Origin: Alphaproteobacteria bacterium
GTDB taxonomy: Bacteria; Pseudomonadota; Alphaproteobacteria; UBA828
Direction: 5' to 3'
Length of the DNA stretch: 64,000 nucleotides
Assembly (NCBI GenBank): GCA_965237415.1
Contig: CBDEFM010000002.1
Location: forward strand, 2,688,001 to 2,752,000
In this document: positions 45,603-54,302 of the stretch, piece by piece
How positions within the stretch are numbered: position 1 is the first letter of the stretch
Layout of the letters: every line of letters starts with the position of its first letter
Position numbers and translations under genes: made by a program
Notes under the pieces: generated by a model
Databases searched by the model: none
Told to the model about the DNA's origin: nothing
What the model saw: only the letters and a program-made list of their open reading frames with translations

Positions 45603-46385
45603 CTAGTCCACGCCGCAGGCGACGAACGGCGGATTGACGAACCCCGCCTTGCCGTAGCGAAGCGCGCGCCCGTTCAGGTCGCGGACATGGCCGCCCGCCA
45701 CCTCGAGAATCGCCTGACCCGCCGCGGTGTCCCATTCCATGGTGCGGCCGAAGCGCGGGTAAAGATCGGCCTCGCCCCGCGCGAGCAGGCCGAACTTGAG
45801 GGCGCTGCCGGCGCTCGCGGTGCGCGCAGGCCGCAGTTCCGCGATGTACGCGTCGGTCTCGGCGTCGCGGTGCGAACGGCTGGCGATCACCGCGGGGCCC
45901 TCGCCGGGCACCGCTCTCGCGCGGATCGTTTGCGGCGCCCCGTTGCCGACGAAACGCATCGCCTGCCCTTGTCCATCGGCGACATAGGTCTCGTCATGGG
46001 CCGGCGCGTGGAGCACGCCGAGCACCGGCCGGCCGGCCTCGATCAGCGCGATGTTGACGGTGAATTCGTCGGTCCGCGCGATGAACTCCCGGGTCCCGTC
46101 TAGCGGATCGACGAGCCAGAAGCGGCCGCCGGCGGGTGCCGCTGGCGCGAGGGTGTCCGTGCTCTCCTCCGAGATCACGGGGATGCGCGGGTCGGCGGCG
46201 AGCAGACCCGCGACGATGAGGCGATCCGCCGCTCGGTCCGCCTCGGTTATCGGCGAGCGATCGTCCTTCGTCTCGACCGTCGTGCCGTCGCGGTAGAAGG
46301 CCATGATTGTCCGCCCGGCCTCCAGCGCCAGATGCCGGGCCGCAGCCGCTAACCGCAGGTAGTCCTCGCTGCTCGTGCCGGTCAT
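45603..46385 (-). CDS. cysQ: 3'(2'),5'-bisphosphate nucleotidase
   Basis: SPITEAD, LVDPLDGTREF, SRSH, GSALKF, MEWDTAAG. Confidence 0.93.
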   Translation of the reverse strand: MTGTSSEDYLRLAAAARHLALEAGRTIMAFYRDGTTVETKDDRSPITEADRAADRLIVAGLLAADPRIPVISEESTDTLAPAAPAGGRFWLVDPLDGTREFIARTDEFTVNIALIEAGRPVLGVLHAPAHDETYVADGQGQAMRFVGNGAPQTIRARAVPGEGPAVIASRSHRDAETDAYIAELRPARTASAGSALKFGLLARGEADLYPRFGRTMEWDTAAGQAILEVAGGHVRDLNGRALRYGKAGFVNPPFVACGVD

Positions 46386-46556: not shown

Positions 46557-46778
46557 ATGATTAAGGAAACTGTGGTCGCCGTGAGTATCATCACCATGGC
46601 GGCCGGCGCCGCTCTTGCGCCGTCGGCCGTATCTGCAGGGGACCAGCCGATCGTCGTCGCGGACTCGCACGAGGATCCGTGCAACCCGTGCGCCGCTTGT
46701 AACCCGTGCGCGGCCTGCAACCCTTGTGCCGCGTGCAACCCGTGTTGCGCCGATCCCTGCAACCCGTGTGCCTGCTGA
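46557..46778 (+). CDS. Small secreted Cys-rich peptide (73 aa, CNP/CAA repeats)
   Basis: AGGAGGA RBS before ATG 46557; signal-like MIKETVVAVSIITMAAGAALAPSAVSA; tail [34 protein letters not shown] (12 Cys); followed by a terminator. Confidence 0.85.
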   Translation: MIKETVVAVSIITMAAGAALAPSAVSAGDQPIVVADSHEDPCNPCAACNPCAACNPCAACNPCCADPCNPCAC

Positions 46779-46806
46779 CGCGACGCGTACGTCTGACCTT
46801 ATCCGA

Positions 46807-46840
46807 GGGCGCCGCCTCACGAGAGGCGGCGTTCTTATTT
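46807..46840 (+). terminator. Intrinsic terminator after the Cys-rich peptide
   Basis: gggcgccgcctc-acga-gaggcggcgttc hairpin followed by ttattt. Confidence 0.75.
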
Positions 46841-46889
46841 CGAGGGCGCTGCGGCACCTCTAGGCTCGGCACCGGCGGTCGGCCGCATT

Positions 46890-47663
46890 TCAGTCGGCGC
46901 TCCGGGTCCTGGCATCGAGAGCGGCCCTGACTGCGGCCATCTGAGCCTCGATCGCAACCTCGGCCTGCGAGACGACCTCGAGGCGGCGGTCCTCGAGCGT
47001 GTCCTTGCCCGGATTCTGCGAGGTCCAGCTCTCGATGACCTGATCCCGCGCCTTGAGCAGCAGGATGATCTGGGGCCAGAACAGCCGCACCATGGCACCG
47101 ACCCAGCGGTTGGTCGGCCAGGACGGGCGAGCGTGGTCGATGACGAAGCTGCCGATTACCTTGGCCACATCGTCGCCGCGATACCAGGTCTCGCCGGTGA
47201 CCCAGCGGTTGGTGGTGAAGAGCCTGAGCGGCTGACCCTTCGAACCCATTGAGATGGCGACCACATGGGTGAGCGCGTCGTCGCCCATGGGCCATTTGTC
47301 GCGACTCTTGCGGTGCATGGGCTTCATGCCGCGCGGCATCCCCTTGGCGCGGACGAAGGTGTGGAAGTGCCCGTGTTCCGTGTCCCTGAAGCCGCCGGGA
47401 TGGGCGTGGTAGAAGTACTGGGAGTGGCTCTGCCCGTCGAAGACATCCCCCTTCGGGTAGTGGTCCCACTCATAGAACGTCTCGTGGCCGCGCAGCACTT
47501 CGCTCACCACACTGTCGCCGGTCCGGCCGAGCACGCGCTCGATCTCACGCACCTCCTCGCCGCCGGCGAGCATCATGCGCAGCCGCTTCACCGGCTGCGT
47601 CGCCAAGTCGAGGTGGCGGGTTTCCTCCTGCCGCTCGTTCTTGGTTGCCGTGGCCTGGGCCAT
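46890..47663 (-). CDS. Hypothetical His-motif protein (DUF6969-like)
   Basis: Start MAQATATK at 47663; HYPKGDVFD, QYFYHAH, EHGHFHTF, LFTTNRWVTGETW. Family name recalled from memory, not searched. Confidence 0.7.
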   Translation of the reverse strand: MAQATATKNERQEETRHLDLATQPVKRLRMMLAGGEEVREIERVLGRTGDSVVSEVLRGHETFYEWDHYPKGDVFDGQSHSQYFYHAHPGGFRDTEHGHFHTFVRAKGMPRGMKPMHRKSRDKWPMGDDALTHVVAISMGSKGQPLRLFTTNRWVTGETWYRGDDVAKVIGSFVIDHARPSWPTNRWVGAMVRLFWPQIILLLKARDQVIESWTSQNPGKDTLEDRRLEVVSQAEVAIEAQMAAVRAALDARTRSAD

Positions 47664-47746
47664 TCTGCCGCTCTGCCCTCTGTTCGCTGGCCGTGCCGCC
47701 GATGAAAGATAGTGCTGCGGACCAGCTCTTGCCAGACCGGGGGTTT

Positions 47747-48640
47747 CTAGCGCTCGACCTCCGTCGCCTCTCTCTCGAGCGGCGCGGCGACGAGGCGGAA
47801 GCCGACAAGGATGTGCTTGATGTCGGCAGGCCGACCATGACGCGCTGCGGGGCGGCATATGCCGCAGCCGCTGTCGTCCCACGAACCGCCCTTGACCAGG
47901 AAGCGACCCGGATTGCCGGGCGAGGCGGTCCACTCGAAGACCTGGCCTGCCGCGTCGAGCAGGCCGTAAGGGCTTGCGCCCGCAGGCCGGCTGCCGACCG
48001 GCAGCGTATCGAAGGGGCCGGCGTCGTGGCTGTTGAGAAGCGCGGGGTCGAACGTGTCGCCCCACGGGAAGATACGGCCATCGGGGCCGCGCGCGGCCTT
48101 CTCCCACTCAAGTTCGGTCGGAAGCCGCCAGGTGCGCCCGGTCTCGGCCGAAAGCCAGGCCGCATACGCCTCGGCATCGTCATGCGAGACCAGCACCACG
48201 GGATGGTCCTCGCGCCCCGGCGGCGGGGTTCCATCCACCCACGCATGGCGGCGGGTGCGCTCATAGGGGTGGATCAGCCGGTAGCCGCGCCAGGTCTCGG
48301 CATCGACATCCGGCACGCGATGGCCCGTGGCGGTCACGAACGCCGCGTACTGGGCGTTGGTGATCAGCGTACGCGTGATGAAGAAGCGCTCCAGCGACGT
48401 GGACCCGCGCGGGCGCTCGCGATCGTACCAGCCGCGCTCCCGCGTTCGGGAGTGGCCGTAAGCCGCCTCGTCGAGCTGGTAGGCGTACTCCCGCTCGGCC
48501 GCACCGGAGCCCGCGATGAAAGGCCCGGCGGGAACCTCGACCACGGCCGGGGCCGTCACGCTGCCGGCATGGGAGGTGCCCGCAAGAACGGCGCCGGAGA
48601 CCGCGAGACACACGGCCAGCAAAGCTCGGACGAAGGTCAT
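47747..48640 (-). CDS. Periplasmic FGE-sulfatase (SUMF1/NirV/PvdO) domain protein
   Basis: Signal peptide; ITNAQYAAFV, HPVVLVSHDDAEAYA, RLPTELEWEKAARG, GLLDAAGQVFEW, KGGSW, GFRLV. Confidence 0.9.
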   Translation of the reverse strand: MTFVRALLAVCLAVSGAVLAGTSHAGSVTAPAVVEVPAGPFIAGSGAAEREYAYQLDEAAYGHSRTRERGWYDRERPRGSTSLERFFITRTLITNAQYAAFVTATGHRVPDVDAETWRGYRLIHPYERTRRHAWVDGTPPPGREDHPVVLVSHDDAEAYAAWLSAETGRTWRLPTELEWEKAARGPDGRIFPWGDTFDPALLNSHDAGPFDTLPVGSRPAGASPYGLLDAAGQVFEWTASPGNPGRFLVKGGSWDDSGCGICRPAARHGRPADIKHILVGFRLVAAPLEREATEVER

Positions 48641-48764
48641 CGCGCGACTCTATTCGCGAGCCGCCCGGCGGAGGAGTCACAAAAATTTGAGTGGAAGGGG
48701 TTTGCCCCGCACCATGCGCTGGCCGACAATTCGTACCGAACACGGACATTGAGGGAGGCCCGAC

Positions 48765-50096
48765 ATGCCACGCACGAAACCCCTGCTCGCCGGAACGGTG
48801 GTCCCTGTGGTCATCGGGCTTGCCGTCTTCACCGGCGGCGGCCACGCCGCGGCCGGCACATCCGCCACCGAAACCCCGGCGGCGACCCCGCAGCATCAGG
48901 ACCCGGGGGTGCTCCTCTTCGCTTCGTGCAACCCTTGCGGACCGTGCAATCCGTGCCGGCCGTGCGCGGGAGCCTGCGGACCATGCGGTCCCTGTAATCC
49001 CTGCAACCCATGCGCCGGCGCGTGCGGCGCGTGCGGCGCATGCGGGCCGTGCAACCCCTGCAACCCGTGTGACCCGACCGCAGGCGCCTGCGGTCCCTGC
49101 GGCGCCTGTAACCCGTGCAATCCCTGTGCTGCCGGCTGTGGCCCTTGCGGTGCGTGTAACCCCTGTGCTGCCGGCTGTGGCCCGTGCGGCGCGTGCAATC
49201 CCTGCAATCCGTGCAACCCTTGCAATCCTTGCGCCGGTGCCTGCGGTCCGTGCGGCGCCTGCAACCCATGTGCGGCCGGCGCTGCAGCCGGGTCCGACTG
49301 CGTCGTTCCGCGCCTCGCGGCCACGTGCAATCCCTGCAACCCCTGCGCTGCAGCGAATCCCTGCAACCCCTGTGGGCCTTGCAACCCGTGCAATCCATGT
49401 GCAGTCGCCTGCGCACCGTGCGGCCCCTGCAACCCGTGTGCGGCGTGTAACCCTTGCAACCCCTGCGCGCCGTGCAATCCGTGTAATCCCTGTGCTGCGA
49501 ACCCGTGCAACCCCTGCGCACCCTGCAATCCGTGCGCACCCTGCAACCCGTGCGGCGCCTGCAATCCATGCAATCCGTGCGCTGCTGGCGAGGCGATCGA
49601 GCTGAGCGCGGCCGAGGCCAGAGACGCCTATGCCTGCATCAGTGCGGTCATGGCCAAGGGCTACGCCAAGTCGGGCAACCAGTGGGCAGCGTCCTACCAG
49701 AACTGGAGGAACGTCGCGGCCCAGCCCTATGTCTCCGACACCCATGGCGCGCGCTACGTCAACAACTACGCCAACGATGTCGGCGCGGACAACTACAGTC
49801 TCTTCGAAGAGGCGGGACCGGCGCCCGCCGGAACCGTTCTCGCCAAGGACAGTTTCGTGGTCAGAGCCAACGGCAACGTGGGCGCGGGGCCGCTCTTCCT
49901 GATGGAGAAGATGGAGTCCGGCTTCAACGCCGATACGGGAGACTGGCGCTATACGCTGATCATGCCGAACGGCCGGGTGATCGGCACCACCGGCGGAAAG
50001 GGCGCCAAGAACGTCGTCTTCTGCGCCGAGTGTCACCTCTCTGTCGAGGAACACGACAGCCGCTTCTTCCTCGACGAGGAGTATCGGATCCAGTAG
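48765..50096 (+). CDS. Secreted Cys-rich (CNP repeat) protein fused to a cytochrome P460/c'-beta-like domain
   Basis: GAGGGAGG RBS; signal peptide; about 218-aa Cys-triplet region; C-terminal [21 protein letters not shown] and single CAECH heme motif. Confidence 0.82.
48927..49580 (+). repeat. Coding 9-bp-periodic repeat (C-N-P, C-G-P, C-G-A, C-A-P)
   Basis: Recurrent tg(c/t)aa(c/t)ccN units; about 64 Cys by manual count; exact 23-bp duplicate at 49122-49144 and 49161-49183. Confidence 0.95.
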
Positions 50097-50231
50097 TCAC
50101 CCGCCGGCGGCGCGTTGCCTCCCGGGCACGGCGCGCCGCCGGCCCCCAAGGCCTCCTTGATCAGGGGTGCGAACCCGGCCTATGTTCGCGCCTCCACCGC
50201 CTCACCGGGGACTAGACCTAAGGAGATACCC

Positions 50232-50621
50232 GTGCGCGTACGTCACGTTCTCGCCATCGCCCTCGCCACCGCCATGATGGCGGCGAGCGCGTCCGCCATT
50301 GCTGCTGATGTGAAGAAGGGCAAGAAGGTCTTCAAGAAGTGCAAGGTCTGCCACACCGTCAAGGAGGGCGGCAAGCACAAGGTCGGCCCCAACCTTTACG
50401 GCGTCTTCGGGCGCACGTCTGGCACGGCCGAGGGCTTCAAGAAATACTCGAACGCGATGAAGGACGCGGCGATCGTCTGGGACGAAGAGACCATCGAGGC
50501 CTATATCGCCGACCCCAAGGGCTACGTGCCGAAGAACAAGATGGCCTTCAAAGGGGTCAGGAAAGAGAAGGACCGGCAGAACCTGATCGCCTATCTCAAG
50601 GAAGCGACAGGCGCAGAGTGA
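50232..50621 (+). CDS. Class I cytochrome c (c2/CycA-like)
   Basis: AAGGAG RBS, GTG start 50232; signal peptide; [20 protein letters not shown]. Confidence 0.93.
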
Positions 50622-50661
50622 TCGGGGAGAACGAAGCCGCCCTGCGTTGAACGGGGCAGCC

Positions 50662-51186
50662 GTGTCCGCCATCGACCTGCGAGACCACATTCGCGCGGTT
50701 CCCGACTTCCCCAAGCCCGGCATCCTGTTCTACGACCTCTCGACCCTGCTCGCCCACGGGCCGGCATGGAGCGAAACGGTGCACCGCCTCGCCGACGTGG
50801 TGAGCGAGCACAAGCCCGACCTGCTCGCCGGGATCGAATCGCGGGGGTTTTTGGTCGCGGCGCCGATCGCACATGCGCTCGGCTGCGGCTTCATCATGGT
50901 GCGCAAGAAGGGCAAGCTGCCGGGCGAAACCGTGGCGCACGAGTACGCGCTTGAGTACGGCACCGACCAGGTCGAGGTGCAGGCTGACGCTGTCGCTCCA
51001 GGCCAGCGGGTGGTCCTTCTCGACGATCTGCTGGCGACGGGCGGCACGGCGGCGGCGGCGCATTCGCTGCTGCGCCGGGTGGGTGCCGAGGTGGTGGCGG
51101 CGGCCTTCATTATCGAGCTGACCTTCCTCGGCGGGCGTCAGCGCCTCGACCTGCCCATCACCTCTCTCGTCGCCTACGACTCGTAG
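50662..51186 (+). CDS. apt: Adenine phosphoribosyltransferase
   Basis: [42 protein letters not shown]. Confidence 0.96.
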
Positions 51187-51215: not shown

Positions 51216-51884
51216 ATGGCAATTGCCGTGATCGGAGGCACCGGCCCGCAGGGTCGCGGCCTGGCGCAGCGCTGCGCGCTTGCCGGCATCGACGTCGTCG
51301 TGGGCTCGCGCGATGCCGCCCGGGCGGCGGAGATCGCGGCCGATCTCAGAGCAGGCGTGCCCGGCGCGCCGGGGGCGATCGAAGGCGCAGCCAACGCCGA
51401 CGCGGTCGCCCGCGCCGATCAGATCGTGGTGCTGGCGGTGCCGTGGGGCGCGCACCAGGCCACGTTGACCTCGCTGACCAAGACACTCCAAGGGAAGATT
51501 CTGGTGGACATGGCGGTGCCTCTCGCCGACGGCAACCCCCGGCGGACCGCGATGCCGCCGGAGGGCTCGGCGACCGAGGCGGCGCAGGCGATGCTAGGCG
51601 AAGGCTGTGCCGTGGTGGGCGCGCTCCACAACGTCTCCGCCCATGTGCTGGCCGCACTGGATCAGCCGATCAACTGCGATATCCTCGTCTGCGGCGACGA
51701 CCTGGAAGCGAAGCGCGCAGTCATGGAACTGATCGAGACGATCGGCGCCTGCGCCTACAACTGCGGCCCGGCCGAAAGCGCGCGCTGCATCGAGGCGCTG
51801 ACCCCGCTGCTCATCCGCCTCAACATGTCGAAGGCGACGGGCTTCAAGCACGCGGGCGTGAAGATCTGGCCGGAAGCCGAGTGA
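51216..51884 (+). CDS. npdG: NADPH-dependent F420 reductase (F420H2:NADP+ oxidoreductase)
   Basis: [44 protein letters not shown]. Confidence 0.85.
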
Positions 51885-51889
51885 CGGGG

Positions 51890-52915
51890 ATGATTATGGA
51901 ATTCGGAATTACCTTTCGCGGCGACCTCGAAAAGGATCGCGTCGTCGCCATCTGCCGGCAGGCCGAGGCGGCCGGTTTCGACTATGCCTGGTTCTTCGAC
52001 AGCCACGTGCTCTGGCGCGACCTCTACCCGCAGATGGCGGTCGCCATCGAGAACACCCGGCGGCTTCGCTTCGGCCCCTGCGTCACCAACCCGATGACCC
52101 GCGAGTGGTCGGTGGCGGCGAGCCTGTTCGGGGCCATGGCGGTGCAGTCGGATGGACGCTTCGACATGGGCGTGGGCCGCGGCGACAGCGCCGTGCGCGT
52201 GATCGGCAAGCGGCCGGCGACGGTGGCGCGCCTGGAGGCGTTCTGCCACGCCATGAAGGCGCTGGTGCGGGGCGAGGCGGTCAGCTACGAGGGCACGCCG
52301 GAGCCGGTGCAGTTCGACTGGACCGGCGGCTACGAGATGCCCGTCTGGGTCGCGGCCTACGGGCCGCGCGCGCTCGCGGCGGCCGGCCGTGTCGGCGACG
52401 GGCTGATCGTGCAGCTCGCCGATGTCGGCCTCTGCCAATGGATGGGGGACCAGGCGCGCGATGCCGGCCGCGCCCAAGGCCGCGACATGGCGGACTACCG
52501 CGTCATGGCCTGCACGCCCGTCTGGGTCGGCGACCGCGAGGCCGGGATCGCGCAGACCAAGTGGTTCCCGGCTTTGGTGGGCAACCATGTGGCCGACATC
52601 GTCAAGCACCACGGCGCCGGCACCGACCTCGTGCCGGAGAGCCTGACCGCCTACATCGCCCAGCGCGAGGGCGTCGGCGCCGACGAGGGCTACGACTACC
52701 ACGAGCACACCGCGCTGGAATCAGACAATAGCGCCTATGTCACGCCTGAGATCACCGAGGATTTCTGCGTAATCGGCCCGGCCGAGGCCCATGTCGAGAA
52801 GATCCGGGCGCTGGAGGCCGCCGGCGTCACCCAGTTCAACATCTACCTCGTGAACGGCGGCGAGGAGCAAATCGTCGCCGCCTACGCGGACCACGTGATC
52901 CCGCACTTTCGGTAG
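51890..52915 (+). CDS. LLM-class F420-dependent oxidoreductase (TIGR03842-like)
   Basis: WFFDSHVLWRD, GPCVTNP, GVGRGDSA, VAAYGPRAL, WFPALVGNHVAD, TQFNIYL; directly follows npdG. Confidence 0.8.
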   Translation: MIMEFGITFRGDLEKDRVVAICRQAEAAGFDYAWFFDSHVLWRDLYPQMAVAIENTRRLRFGPCVTNPMTREWSVAASLFGAMAVQSDGRFDMGVGRGDSAVRVIGKRPATVARLEAFCHAMKALVRGEAVSYEGTPEPVQFDWTGGYEMPVWVAAYGPRALAAAGRVGDGLIVQLADVGLCQWMGDQARDAGRAQGRDMADYRVMACTPVWVGDREAGIAQTKWFPALVGNHVADIVKHHGAGTDLVPESLTAYIAQREGVGADEGYDYHEHTALESDNSAYVTPEITEDFCVIGPAEAHVEKIRALEAAGVTQFNIYLVNGGEEQIVAAYADHVIPHFR

Positions 52916-52923
52916 GGGCGAGT

Positions 52924-52945
52924 GCGGGCCGCAACTGCGGCCCGC
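52924..52945. terminator. GC-rich hairpin between convergent genes
   Basis: gcgggccgc-aact-gcggcccgc; no clear U tract. Confidence 0.45.
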
Positions 52946-52952
52946 CTACGCC

Positions 52953-54302
52953 TCAGTAGAGCTCGATATACTCGTCGCGCTCCCATTGGGTGATGTGGGC
53001 GTTGAAGCGGACAAGCTCGGCGCGCTTCATCGTGGTGAAGACGGTCACGAACTCCTCCCCTAGCAGATCGACCATCGCCTGGTCGGCCTCGAGCGCGGCG
53101 AGGGCGGCCTCGAGATTTACCGGGAAGGGCGGAAGGCTCGGGTCGTCCTCGCTCGGCCCATCGGACTGCGCGACGAGCGAGCGCTTCTCGCTAAGCCCGA
53201 GCAGCCCGCAGGCCAGCGTGCCGGCGGCACAGAGATAGGGATTGCTGATCGCGGACGAGGCCCGCATTTCCACGTGCATCCCCGGCGTGCCGGGCTGCTT
53301 GATGCGCACCATGGCGCTCCGGTCCTCCTCGCCCCAGCTGACGTTGGAGGGCGCGAAGGTGTGGGGCGTGAGCCGTCGGTAGCAGTTCGGTGTCGGGTTG
53401 AAGAGCGCCATGCAGGCGGCGCCGTGGTCGATGAGGCCCTGGACGAAATGCCGGAGCGTCCGCGTCAGGTCGTTCGGGTTGTCGGGGTCGTAGAAGGCGC
53501 TCCACCCGCTCTCCTTCTCGATCAGGCTGATGTGGTAGTGGCAGCCGGAGCCCGCCATGCCCGCCGCCGGCTTGCCCATGAAGGTCGCGGTGAGGCCTTC
53601 GTGCTGGACGATCTCCTTGACCCCGTTCTTGAAGGTAAACGCGTTGTCGAGGCCCACCATCCCCTCGGCATGTCTGTAGACCAGCTCGTACTGGGAGGGC
53701 GCGTACTCGGCGTTGGCCGTCAGCATCGGGATGCCGGCCGCCCGCAGGCTGTCGACCACCGCGCGGATCGCCGGCAGCTGGTCGTTCCGCAGATTGTTGA
53801 AGATATGGACTCCGCCGAAGAGCGGCTCGTGCGTCTCGCGGTCGAGCACGAAGAACTCGTACTCGTGGGCGCTCTCGATGCCGAAGCCGAGCTCGGCCAC
53901 CCTCTCCAACATCCGGCGCGCGACGTGGCGGGGCGCGGCGTGAAGCGGCGTGCCGTCCTCCCACTCCGTGTCGCAGATAACCTTCGCCATGCCATCGAGC
54001 CACGGCACGGTCGCGAGGGTCGAAAGATCGGGACGCAGGGTCTGGTCCTTGTACTTGACCTCCTCGTTGTAGAGGGTGCCGGGGATCACGTGAGAGGCCG
54101 TGTCGAGGGCGACGATGCCGCCATACATGTTCACACCCTCACGGGCGGACGCGGCGAACCGCTCGACCGGCACCTGCTTGGAGCGGGCGGAGCCGTGCAT
54201 GTCCGGCAGCTCGAAGCGGACATGCTGGATTCCGTCGCGCTCGAGCCGCGCCAGCGCCTCCTCTACCTGATCGCGGGTACCTTGCCCTGTGTCATCGACC
54301 AC
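52953..54302 (-). CDS. Glutamine synthetase-like protein (probable gamma-glutamyl-amine ligase)
   Basis: EYEFF, EYAPSQYE, ATFMGKP, GSGCHYH, WGEEDRSAMVR, EMR..NPY; divergent from canonical GlnA. Confidence 0.88.
   Translation of the reverse strand: MVDDTGQGTRDQVEEALARLERDGIQHVRFELPDMHGSARSKQVPVERFAASAREGVNMYGGIVALDTASHVIPGTLYNEEVKYKDQTLRPDLSTLATVPWLDGMAKVICDTEWEDGTPLHAAPRHVARRMLERVAELGFGIESAHEYEFFVLDRETHEPLFGGVHIFNNLRNDQLPAIRAVVDSLRAAGIPMLTANAEYAPSQYELVYRHAEGMVGLDNAFTFKNGVKEIVQHEGLTATFMGKPAAGMAGSGCHYHISLIEKESGWSAFYDPDNPNDLTRTLRHFVQGLIDHGAACMALFNPTPNCYRRLTPHTFAPSNVSWGEEDRSAMVRIKQPGTPGMHVEMRASSAISNPYLCAAGTLACGLLGLSEKRSLVAQSDGPSEDDPSLPPFPVNLEAALAALEADQAMVDLLGEEFVTVFTTMKRAELVRFNAHITQWERDEYIELY

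Follow-up and report, generated by a model that had tools for sequence, protein, structure and literature searches.

A recurrent gene module of DUF6969 and secreted cysteine-repeat proteins with haem and FGE-domain accessories: a candidate periplasmic thiol-polymer system

Do five neighbouring genes between cysQ and apt in an alphaproteobacterium of the UBA828 lineage belong together and, if so, what do they do? The question is raised by a window of 64,000 nucleotides (the whole stretch of DNA analysed; assembly GCA_965237415.1, contig CBDEFM010000002.1, positions 2,688,001 to 2,752,000), in which the original prediction, made from the letters alone, had placed a 73-amino-acid (aa) secreted cysteine-repeat peptide (pep73), a DUF6969 protein, a protein with a formylglycine-generating enzyme (FGE) domain, a 443-aa cysteine-repeat protein with a P460-like haem domain, and a class I cytochrome c. 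Open reading frame (ORF) listing, translation, and family scans located all five, and signal peptides, assigned by eye throughout, were seen as predicted on pep73, the FGE protein, the 443-aa protein, and the cytochrome c, DUF6969 being without one. The module is very probably a real, conserved unit. Its conserved core is DUF6969 plus secreted Cys-repeat proteins, and it appears to handle metals or reactive sulfur or nitrogen compounds outside the cell membrane as a system not previously described.

Co-occurrence across the class carried the first part of this answer. In a sample of 301 genomes drawn evenly (one or two per family), DUF6969 was detected in 66 genomes, the P460 domain in 43, a DNA pattern for three NPC (Asn-Pro-Cys) units in 40, and an orthologue of the FGE protein (58-76% identity) in 26. 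The original prediction had named the co-occurrence of the repeats with P460, DUF6969, and FGE as its check, and genomes with DUF6969 indeed held 36 of the 40 NPC-positive genomes (30 with DUF6969 only, 4 with the pattern only, 231 with neither; Fisher p 6e-24), 36 of the 43 with the P460 domain (30, 7, and 228, respectively), and 25 of the 26 with FGE (41, 1, and 234), p values here being too strong since related genomes are not independent. FGE and the P460 domain coincided in 22 genomes (FGE only in 4, P460 only in 21, neither in 254). The four NPC-positive genomes without DUF6969 (G093, G160, G244, and G329) were false positives, i.e., tandem DNA repeats out of frame or with stops, and hence every genuine NPC-repeat coding sequence (36 genomes) lay in a DUF6969-positive genome. 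One of these matches (G331) was ambiguous, a reversed-pattern control was positive in 4 genomes, and G279, counted only among the 66 DUF6969 positives, can be removed without altering anything. The distribution is nested: DUF6969 is the most widespread, Cys-repeat genes occur only with DUF6969, and FGE occurs almost only with both. The genes were also close together, with FGE within 700 bp of DUF6969 in 20 of its 26 genomes (within 2 kb in one more) and the P460 domain within 3.5 kb in 21 genomes, many of the remaining assemblies being fragmented.

Synteny among relatives gave the same picture. DUF6969 was found in 37 of 61 genomes around the source genome, the 20 others of the genus all being among them. 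In 14.6-kb stretches around DUF6969 from 20 close relatives, FGE adjoined DUF6969 in 15, and the stretches held the P460 domain with Cys repeats (16), a small Cys-repeat peptide (18), and cytochrome c (17). Two genomes of other families kept the module together in another order or without the cysQ and apt flanks, one (G042) as DUF6969-FGE-CysP460-cytochrome c and the other (G047) with FGE, the small peptide, CysP460, and DUF6969 rearranged yet still adjacent. The arrangement apt-cytochrome c-DUF6969(-pep73)-cysQ, lacking FGE and P460, was observed in G030 and G039, such that the FGE/P460 pair behaves as an insert next to DUF6969 in that lineage. cysQ and apt were themselves considered as members of the system and rejected: cysQ was present in 0 of 20 class-level loci, and cysQ, a Sua5-like gene, and apt flank the module only within the genus or family.

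The association also extended beyond the class. Searching the DUF6969 alignment against 185,579 species genomes gave 575 relatives, and the best 80 of the 575 loci, from hosts including Azospirillum, Oceanibacterium, Inquilinus, Skermanella, and metagenome-assembled genomes (MAGs) of Kiloniellales, Rhodospirillales, and several Betaproteobacteria, had FGE adjacent in 39, the P460 domain in 15, and cytochrome c in 23; cytochrome c was near DUF6969 in 51 of 120 loci. Five betaproteobacterial loci (L089, L101, L124, L131, and L137) and one from another class of the phylum (L152) encoded a monohaem SoxA/TsdA-type cytochrome c with ANPCAAKNPC repeats on both sides, immediately upstream of DUF6969 or, where a multihaem cytochrome preceded DUF6969, upstream of that. 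PF21342 matched this haem domain with E 4e-9 to 2e-11 in L089, L101, L124, and L131, L137 and L152 being assigned by similarity only; the multihaem cytochrome and then DUF6969 followed in five of the six (not L152), a small secreted NPC peptide lay beside the haem-repeat gene in four (L089, L124, L131, and L137), and FGE was found in none of the six. Other loci encoded a small secreted repeat peptide directly upstream of DUF6969 in the same orientation, of NPC type in L112, L138, L154, L164, L166, and L171, of NPCGP type in L155 (another class, 45% GC), and of CCAAEG type in L156 and L157; L152 was also counted among the loci with a small repeat-peptide gene in this position. Overall, a Cys-repeat ORF occurred within 3 kb of DUF6969 in 58 of the 111 loci whose sequence reached 3 kb or more to either side of it, and in 21/54 and 8/19 of the two least selected sets, L156 and L157 having been missed by the regular expression and left uncounted. 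The claim of a recurrent unit was therefore borne out, co-occurrence and adjacency having held in many families and in no fewer than two or three classes. The composition proposed for it held in part: DUF6969 and the Cys-repeat proteins are the core, and since a SoxA/TsdA-type cytochrome c replaces P460 and FGE is missing in Betaproteobacteria, FGE, the haem domain, and the cytochrome c are accessory (FGE in 26/301 vs. DUF6969 in 66/301). An exported Cys array amid small residues and a cytoplasmic His-rich DUF6969 were the features common to all versions, and nothing else was.

Neighbouring genes in the wider set were more varied. The peptide-DUF6969 pair had NrsF and extracytoplasmic function (ECF) sigma factor genes as neighbours in L112 and L138 and, in L112 only, also a thioredoxin and a DsbD-type membrane protein. 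A YHS-domain gene occurred in L099, and rhodanese was near DUF6969 in 24/140 loci, YeeE-type Sulf_transp in 9/140, and DUF2336 in 49/140, DUF302 being a further neighbour. A secreted protein of about 125 aa, cupredoxin-like by eye, ending in ...PGEYVYSCPLNPTPDYRLVV and without a Pfam match, was seen at L131:6651-7091 with relatives in L065, L082, L089, L101, L124, L138, L164, and L166; it is next to DUF6969 in 9/140 loci, both alpha- and betaproteobacterial. Marine alphaproteobacterial MAGs (L084, L097, L103, L105, L118, L123, L145, L146, and others) shared a string of a fused TRAP permease (DctM-DUF3394), Usp, (FGE), DUF6969, convergent rhodanese, and DUF2336.

The cysteine repeats themselves are far beyond chance and no compositional accident. 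The original prediction had noted the same rare repeat in two nearby genes, and a six-frame scan of the whole 4.75-Mb genome found three real NPC-repeat ORFs, two of them within 2.2 kb of the single DUF6969 gene. The peptide pep73 holds 12 Cys and 5 NPC units in its 73 aa, is preceded by a GAGGAG Shine-Dalgarno sequence, and has a conserved N-terminus of 37 residues (MIKETVVAV..VTMAAGAALAPSAVSAG..PIVVA) followed by a repeat part that varied among 19 distinct orthologues in other loci. The 443-aa protein contains 67 Cys and 31 NPC units, and comprises a signal peptide (aa 1-~30), two Cys-repeat arrays (aa 55-285) with CVVPRL between them, and, at aa 286-443 (nt 49620-50093), the P460-type domain; 64 of its Cys lie within the first 285 residues, as the predicted figure of about 64 had it. 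Among alphaproteobacterial Cys-repeat proteins (window 48765-49619 and homologues), a common N-terminal K..LL(S/T)(S/T)T(V/M)(I/L)P motif was observed in the signal or anchor region, C(V/I)VPRL divided the repeats into two arrays, and both were much more conserved than the repeats. The unit varies and is not always C-N-P: (CGA)n, ANPCA, NPCGP, and CCAAEG types were also found, (CGA)n replacing CNP in some repeat regions even within Alphaproteobacteria. The repeat proteins matched no Pfam or NCBIfam metallothionein family in the family scans, and their repeats, read from the sequence, hold C-x-P with no Arg at +4. The third NPC ORF, outside the window (C2:~351990-352218, + strand), is a small secreted paralogue of pep73 adjoining an ORF that resembles ACC-deaminase or D-cysteine-desulfhydrase, with UbiB-like and transhydrogenase-like ORFs near; these names were given by eye and the neighbours suggested nothing firm.

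DUF6969, the other half of the core, matched PF22308 over its full length (272.9 bits vs. a cut-off of 27) and is encoded once in the genome. It carries the YHAH and HGHFH motifs, and an alignment of 29 sequences (residues numbered by the 222-aa query) kept H33, D38, D41, H51, H53, E61, H64, H66, and H98 in 29/29 and H62 in 28/29, amounting to six invariant His and a seventh nearly so. Identity between classes was 45-55% with 29 invariant columns. The AlphaFold2 model (predicted local distance difference test, pLDDT, 88.7; predicted TM-score 0.88) comprised two short helices, then a His-rich sheet and a long C-terminal helix, with the conserved His, Asp, and Glu on neighbouring strands, from which we infer that DUF6969 may hold a metal site or be a metalloenzyme. 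No sequence match was found in the PDB and no Foldseek match at E<=0.001, the best Z score against 48,161 chains (VIA-align) was 3.4, and a protein Atlas search returned DUF6969 clusters only. The family is nevertheless large, with 1213 cluster representatives at E<=0.001 in a 1.84-billion-protein library. The protein had neither a signal peptide nor a hydrophobic N-terminus, other DUF6969 N-termini likewise lacked an export signal, and rare fusions were found (proteins P0144, P0210, and P0122), one to a PAP2 membrane phosphatase and two in which DUF6969 is followed by a long coiled coil, a single transmembrane segment, and a bacterial SH3 domain at the C-terminus. The coiled-coil fusions put DUF6969 on the cytoplasmic face of the membrane segment, and all of this fits a cytoplasmic protein. 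Complex prediction of DUF6969 with pep73 scored 0.00, which speaks neither for nor against binding.

The haem domain of the 443-aa protein, single copy in the genome, matched PF16694 above the cut-off (31.1 bits vs. 27), in agreement with the original "P460-like" label, and has the haem motif CAECH. Its AlphaFold2 model (pLDDT 90.5) matched 7ead, 9hrk, 7s5o, 6hiu, and 2je2 with Foldseek probability 1.0 and TM-scores of 0.45-0.74. Across 29 P460 domains, C135, C138, and H139 of the haem motif, K76, K97, H42, and R45 were invariant, and position 96 was Glu in 25, Gln in 3, and Val in 1. Profile alignment placed K76 at the Lys and E96 at the Glu of Nitrosomonas europaea P460 (2je2 and 8gar; E 0.04-0.06, weak by sequence), the K76 column being Met in 7s5o and Phe in 7ead. 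The active enzyme has Lys70 and Glu96, c'-beta proteins have Met79 and Phe61, and the cross-link Lys and distal Glu together mark the NH2OH-oxidising members (Table 2 of PMC11928373). Given the fold and these two positions, the domain looks like a cross-linked, catalytically equipped P460, which goes beyond the predicted likeness. At least seven Cys preceded the domain in 111 of the best 120 of 165 homologues from a large protein collection. In 7 of the same best 120 (P0104, P0112, P0114, P0117, P0118, P0120, and P0121), a PF00211 class-3 adenylate cyclase stood ahead of the domain with almost no cysteines before the haem domain, which suggests a haem-based periplasmic sensor version.

The FGE protein was covered by PF03781 over its whole length (profile positions 2-254 of 255) and has a hydrophobic, signal-peptide-like N-terminus, signal or lipoprotein-type sequences being seen in 13/13 orthologues inspected. 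A C-terminal GGSWDDxGCG[VI]CRPAARHGRP motif, containing CxxC, was kept in 12/13 orthologues and in the window protein. The Cys pair lies between GGSW and RPAAR, which we take to be the segment where canonical FGEs hold their copper-binding cysteines, and the canonical spacing is presumably wider than this CxxC. The closest solved relatives were ToxD and CalU17, ahead of SUMF2, EgtB, and FGE, and comparison with NCBIfam equivalogs (EgtB/SenA/OvoA/PvdO/GldK) gave at best 74.6 bits vs. a cut-off of 360 (EgtB), the others also falling far below. No sulfatase was seen among the neighbours, no search having been aimed at CxPxR substrates. A second FGE-domain gene, the paralogue at C2:878098-879714, was rejected as a member of the module, lacking the CxxC and being unrelated to it. 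The cytochrome c has a CKVCH motif and a signal peptide, likely starts at GTG 50232 behind AAGGAG (TTG 50115 being less likely), and is not a CycA equivalog (114.7 bits vs. a cut-off of 240); it is a probable electron partner of the module.

The arrangement of the genes is given in Table 1. The FGE gene is 83 nt upstream of DUF6969 on the same strand and the two probably form one operon, whereas pep73 and DUF6969 are convergent. The hairpin 3' of pep73 (dG -29.3 kcal/mol, z -4.3, 0 of 200 shuffles as good) is probably a bidirectional terminator between the two, and a consensus terminator scan did not list it. The FGE gene and the 443-aa gene diverge across exactly the predicted 124 bp, and within this gap TCACAAAAATTTGAG and the promoter-like TTGCCC-17-GACAAT were conserved in 14 genus or family loci; no regulator match could be named for TCACAAAAATTTGAG, and a consensus scan found no sigma-70 promoter. 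Metatranscriptome contigs (4 runs from 2 studies; 95-99% identity) overlapped parts of all five genes, but as DNA is possible in the libraries and such contigs show neither level, strand, nor transcription, nothing was drawn from them. Beyond apt (window 51216-54302) lie ORFs resembling, by eye, an F420-dependent NADP reductase, a luciferase-like monooxygenase, and a glutamine-synthetase-like protein; the reductase-like ORF is syntenic within the genus and the group seems unlinked to the module.

Table 1. Genes and other features at the DUF6969 locus (window positions).
Feature	Position	Strand	Evidence or place
cysQ	45603-46385	-	TIGR01331, 277 bits; upstream flank of the five-gene stretch
pep73, 73-aa secreted Cys-repeat peptide	46557-46778	+	ORF listing, translation
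GC-rich hairpin, then TTCTTATTT	46805-46836		Folding vs. shuffles
DUF6969 protein, 257 aa	46890-47663	-	PF22308, E 2e-81
FGE-sulfatase-domain protein, secreted, 297 aa	47747-48640	-	PF03781, E 4.3e-44
Footprint TCACAAAAATTTGAG	48677-48691	+	Alignment of 14 genus/family loci
Promoter-like TTGCCC-17 nt-GACAAT	48702-48730	+	Alignment of 14 genus/family loci
Cys-repeat/P460 protein, 443 aa	48765-50096	+	PF16694, 31.1 bits
Class I cytochrome c (c550/c2-like), 129 aa	50232-50621	+	PF00034, E 1.3e-11
apt	50647-51186	+	Downstream flank of the five-gene stretch

For the function of the module, the reading that we tentatively prefer, with somewhat less than even confidence, is a thiol-polymer system in the periplasm, directed at copper or other soft metals. 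It draws on the co-occurrence and adjacency described above, the frequent position of the repeat gene as a precursor before its maturase, the conserved His, Asp, and Glu of DUF6969 as a possible metal site, the copper-type neighbours, and the precedent of the bufferins. These Cys peptides undergo maturation by a multi-iron enzyme in the cytoplasm, are exported via Sec, and chelate copper in the periplasm under SigF/NrsF control (PMC11626156, in excerpt). The repeat proteins would be periplasmic thiol polymers capturing Cu(I) or other soft metals, and DUF6969 a metalloenzyme modifying or preparing their cysteines in the cytoplasm before Sec export, by the logic of MNIO maturation in bufferins and oxazolins. 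The fused haem and the cytochrome c could join the polymer to the respiratory electron pool, oxidising bound Cu(I) or resetting thiols, and the FGE-like protein, a putative cuproprotein, might act on the same cysteines or on copper. NrsF/ECF-sigma, thioredoxin/DsbD, YHS, and cupredoxin-like neighbours fit copper. A search aimed at the MNIO (DUF692, PF05114), though not at its DUF2063 partner, found none in the source genome (96% complete), the control Caulobacter vibrioides having matched, so DUF6969 would have to be another enzyme with a comparable task. The original prediction had offered metal sequestration, NO/sulfur/redox buffering with electrons passed to cytochrome c, or a pathway like that of ribosomally synthesized and post-translationally modified peptides (RiPPs); among these, the context favours a mixture of metal sequestration and RiPP-like modification. 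A bolder version, which we hold to be rather doubtful, would make DUF6969 the founder of a new class of cytoplasmic metalloenzymes. They would chemically alter the cysteines of entire repeat proteins ahead of Sec export, in a RiPP-like pathway at protein scale that is independent of MNIO and radical-SAM enzymes, and yield chelating or redox polymers in the periplasm, connected with the respiratory chain via fused P460 or cytochrome c domains.

Several points weigh against the soft-metal reading. We infer metal binding, any modification, the direction of electron flow, the role of FGE, and indeed the functional role as a whole from genomic context. With no known enzyme fold matched, DUF6969 may not act enzymatically on peptides at all, and might instead regulate or serve some other purpose as a cytoplasmic partner, and the missing MNIO makes the bufferin analogy one of logic only, not of homology. 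In the window, pep73 is convergent to DUF6969 and outside its operon. Neither the NPC pattern nor the P460 domain was found in 20/66 DUF6969 genomes, and in Azospirillum loci DUF6969 stood beside Mla-type transporter genes and DUF2336 only, with no repeat gene nearby; either DUF6969 does not strictly require repeat genes, then, or other repeat types escaped the detectors. Finally, a catalytic P460 haem with Lys and Glu is superfluous for metal buffering and points to N-oxide chemistry, and the SoxA/TsdA-type haem domains, the rhodanese and YeeE-type neighbours, and sulfur-oxidiser hosts point to sulfur.

The sulfur account, which we judge unlikely, would have the repeat Cys bear sulfane sulfur or thiosulfonate like the Cys of SoxY, the fused haem with its cytochrome c acceptor couple sulfide or thiosulfate oxidatively, and DUF6969 handle a sulfur compound in the cytoplasm. 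It draws on the six loci where NPC repeats flank a SoxA/TsdA-type cytochrome c (PF21342 in four) and the multihaem cytochrome-DUF6969 succession in five of them, on thioredoxin, DsbD, and DUF302 among the neighbours in addition to rhodanese and Sulf_transp, and on hosts that include a Sulfuritalea MAG and a Rhodocyclaceae MAG. However, the family scan found no sox, rhodanese, or YeeE match in the module of the window, the FGE-like protein and the NrsF/ECF-sigma context would be left unexplained, the rhodanese and TRAP/Usp/DUF2336 neighbours may reflect lineage synteny, and P460 haems are known for nitrogen chemistry only, according to the excerpted review (PMC11928373). That chemistry leads to a further possibility, the detoxification of reactive nitrogen, in which P460 would oxidise hydroxylamine and pass electrons to cytochrome c while the tethered thiols trap released NO/HNO or protect the haem. 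Such a role agrees with the P460 fold (Foldseek probability 1.0 to 7ead, 9hrk, 6hiu, and 2je2), the cross-link Lys in 29/29 and distal Glu in 25/29, the cytochrome c gene directly after the P460 gene, and the sensor-like cyclase fusions (7 of the 120 homologues listed). The sequence matches to solved P460s were weak, though, no nitrogen-cycle genes were present among the scanned neighbours, and the repeats and DUF6969 also occur without P460 (with a different cytochrome or as bare peptides), so that N-oxide chemistry cannot be the core function. We consider the account as a whole very unlikely.

Units such as CNPC, CGPC, and CGAC resemble redox-active CxxC motifs, and the repeats might accordingly be plain thiol or CxxC polymers serving as an unmodified redox or metal buffer, DUF6969 being a His-based metal or redox sensor that regulates its neighbours, or merely co-regulated. 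Regulators commonly adjoin their targets, DUF6969 also occurs alone or beside only cytochrome c or DUF2336, and its modelled succession of short helices, His-rich sheet, and long helix was likewise counted in favour. Its conservation between classes, with 29 invariant columns, is nonetheless unusual for a regulator, no DNA-binding fold was matched (best structural Z 3.4), and the gene lies downstream in operons, not divergent, leaving this explanation improbable in our view. That the genes are chance neighbours held by local synteny is scarcely credible: the restriction of the cysQ, Sua5-like, and apt flanks to the genus or family would agree with it, as would apt and cytochrome c near DUF6969 in genomes without FGE and P460, but the adjacency kept through rearrangement in G047 and the association across families, classes, and whole genomes contradict it for the core genes, and it holds only for cysQ and apt.

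A large orphan family (66/301 genomes; 1213 representatives) without a fold match, paper, or function gains a concrete hypothesis through its poly-Cys partners. The module may be a second, MNIO-independent route to periplasmic Cys-based metallophores. P460 haems that seem fully equipped, joined to thiol polymers in marine and soil bacteria that do not nitrify, bear on hydroxylamine, NO, and N2O turnover outside nitrifiers, and the independent fusion of the same repeats to two unrelated haem folds suggests that thiol polymers connect to the cytochrome pool in a way not yet recognised. New in this analysis are the confinement of repeat genes to DUF6969 genomes, the haem swap, the bare-peptide operons in other classes, the conservation of the P460 Lys and Glu, the orphan fold and His cluster of DUF6969, and the parallel with bufferin-cytochrome-FGE fusions.

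A literature search of article full texts, covering DUF6969 and the pairing of cytochrome P460 with either formylglycine or cysteine-rich, found no paper and no characterised system of this composition, as the original prediction had supposed. The excerpted text of a P460 review contained none of the words cysteine-rich, fusion, or N-terminal domain (PMC11928373), and that of the MNIO landscape paper made no mention of P460 (PMC12452194). Bufferins and oxazolins, such as those of Caulobacter buf1/buf2, share with the module a Sec signal on Cys-bearing precursors, repeat proteins with dozens of Cys (up to 58 in EGKCG-repeat precursors; PMC12452194, in excerpt), a conserved cytoplasmic partner gene in the operon, and, in some module loci, NrsF/ECF-sigma neighbours. 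The parallel reaches further, as Buf1|Cytochrom_C|FGE-sulfatase and Buf1|Cytochrom_C fusions exist in the bufferin family (same excerpt), uniting chelator, cytochrome c, and FGE-sulfatase, and the module holds a Cys chelator, a c-type haem, and an FGE domain as separate or fused genes. The partner differs, however, being an MNIO in bufferins and oxazolins and a DUF6969 of no known fold here, as do the repeats, which are of NPC/CGA type and unstructured in the module, whereas bufferin precursors are DUF2282 or EGKCG beta-helix proteins.

The accessory proteins can likewise be set beside known families. Cytochromes P460 and c'-beta (2je2/2je3 of N. europaea, 6hiu of M. capsulatus, and 7ead of T. 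thermophilus) have the same beta-sheet fold, C-terminal CXXCH, and Lys and Glu columns, but the module domain follows a 230-residue poly-Cys region, shows marginal sequence similarity, and occurs in hosts that are neither nitrifiers nor methanotrophs. With aerobic FGE and FGE-sulfatase proteins (SUMF1, ToxD 7spq, CalU17 7ml6, EgtB, and PvdO) the module protein has the full-length PF03781 domain in common; it differs in being nearest, among solved structures, to ToxD and CalU17, not FGE, and in having Cys-repeat proteins as neighbours instead of sulfatases. SoxXA/SoxYZ and TsdA resemble the module in setting a c-type haem next to carrier cysteines, the haem domain of the betaproteobacterial relatives being of SoxA/TsdA type, but no Sox or TsdA protein is encoded in the window, and the module carrier is a long repeat in place of the single Cys of SoxY. 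Metallothioneins and copper storage proteins have, like the module proteins, a very high Cys content suited to soft-metal clusters, whereas the module proteins are exported, repeat-built, haem-fused, and tied to DUF6969.

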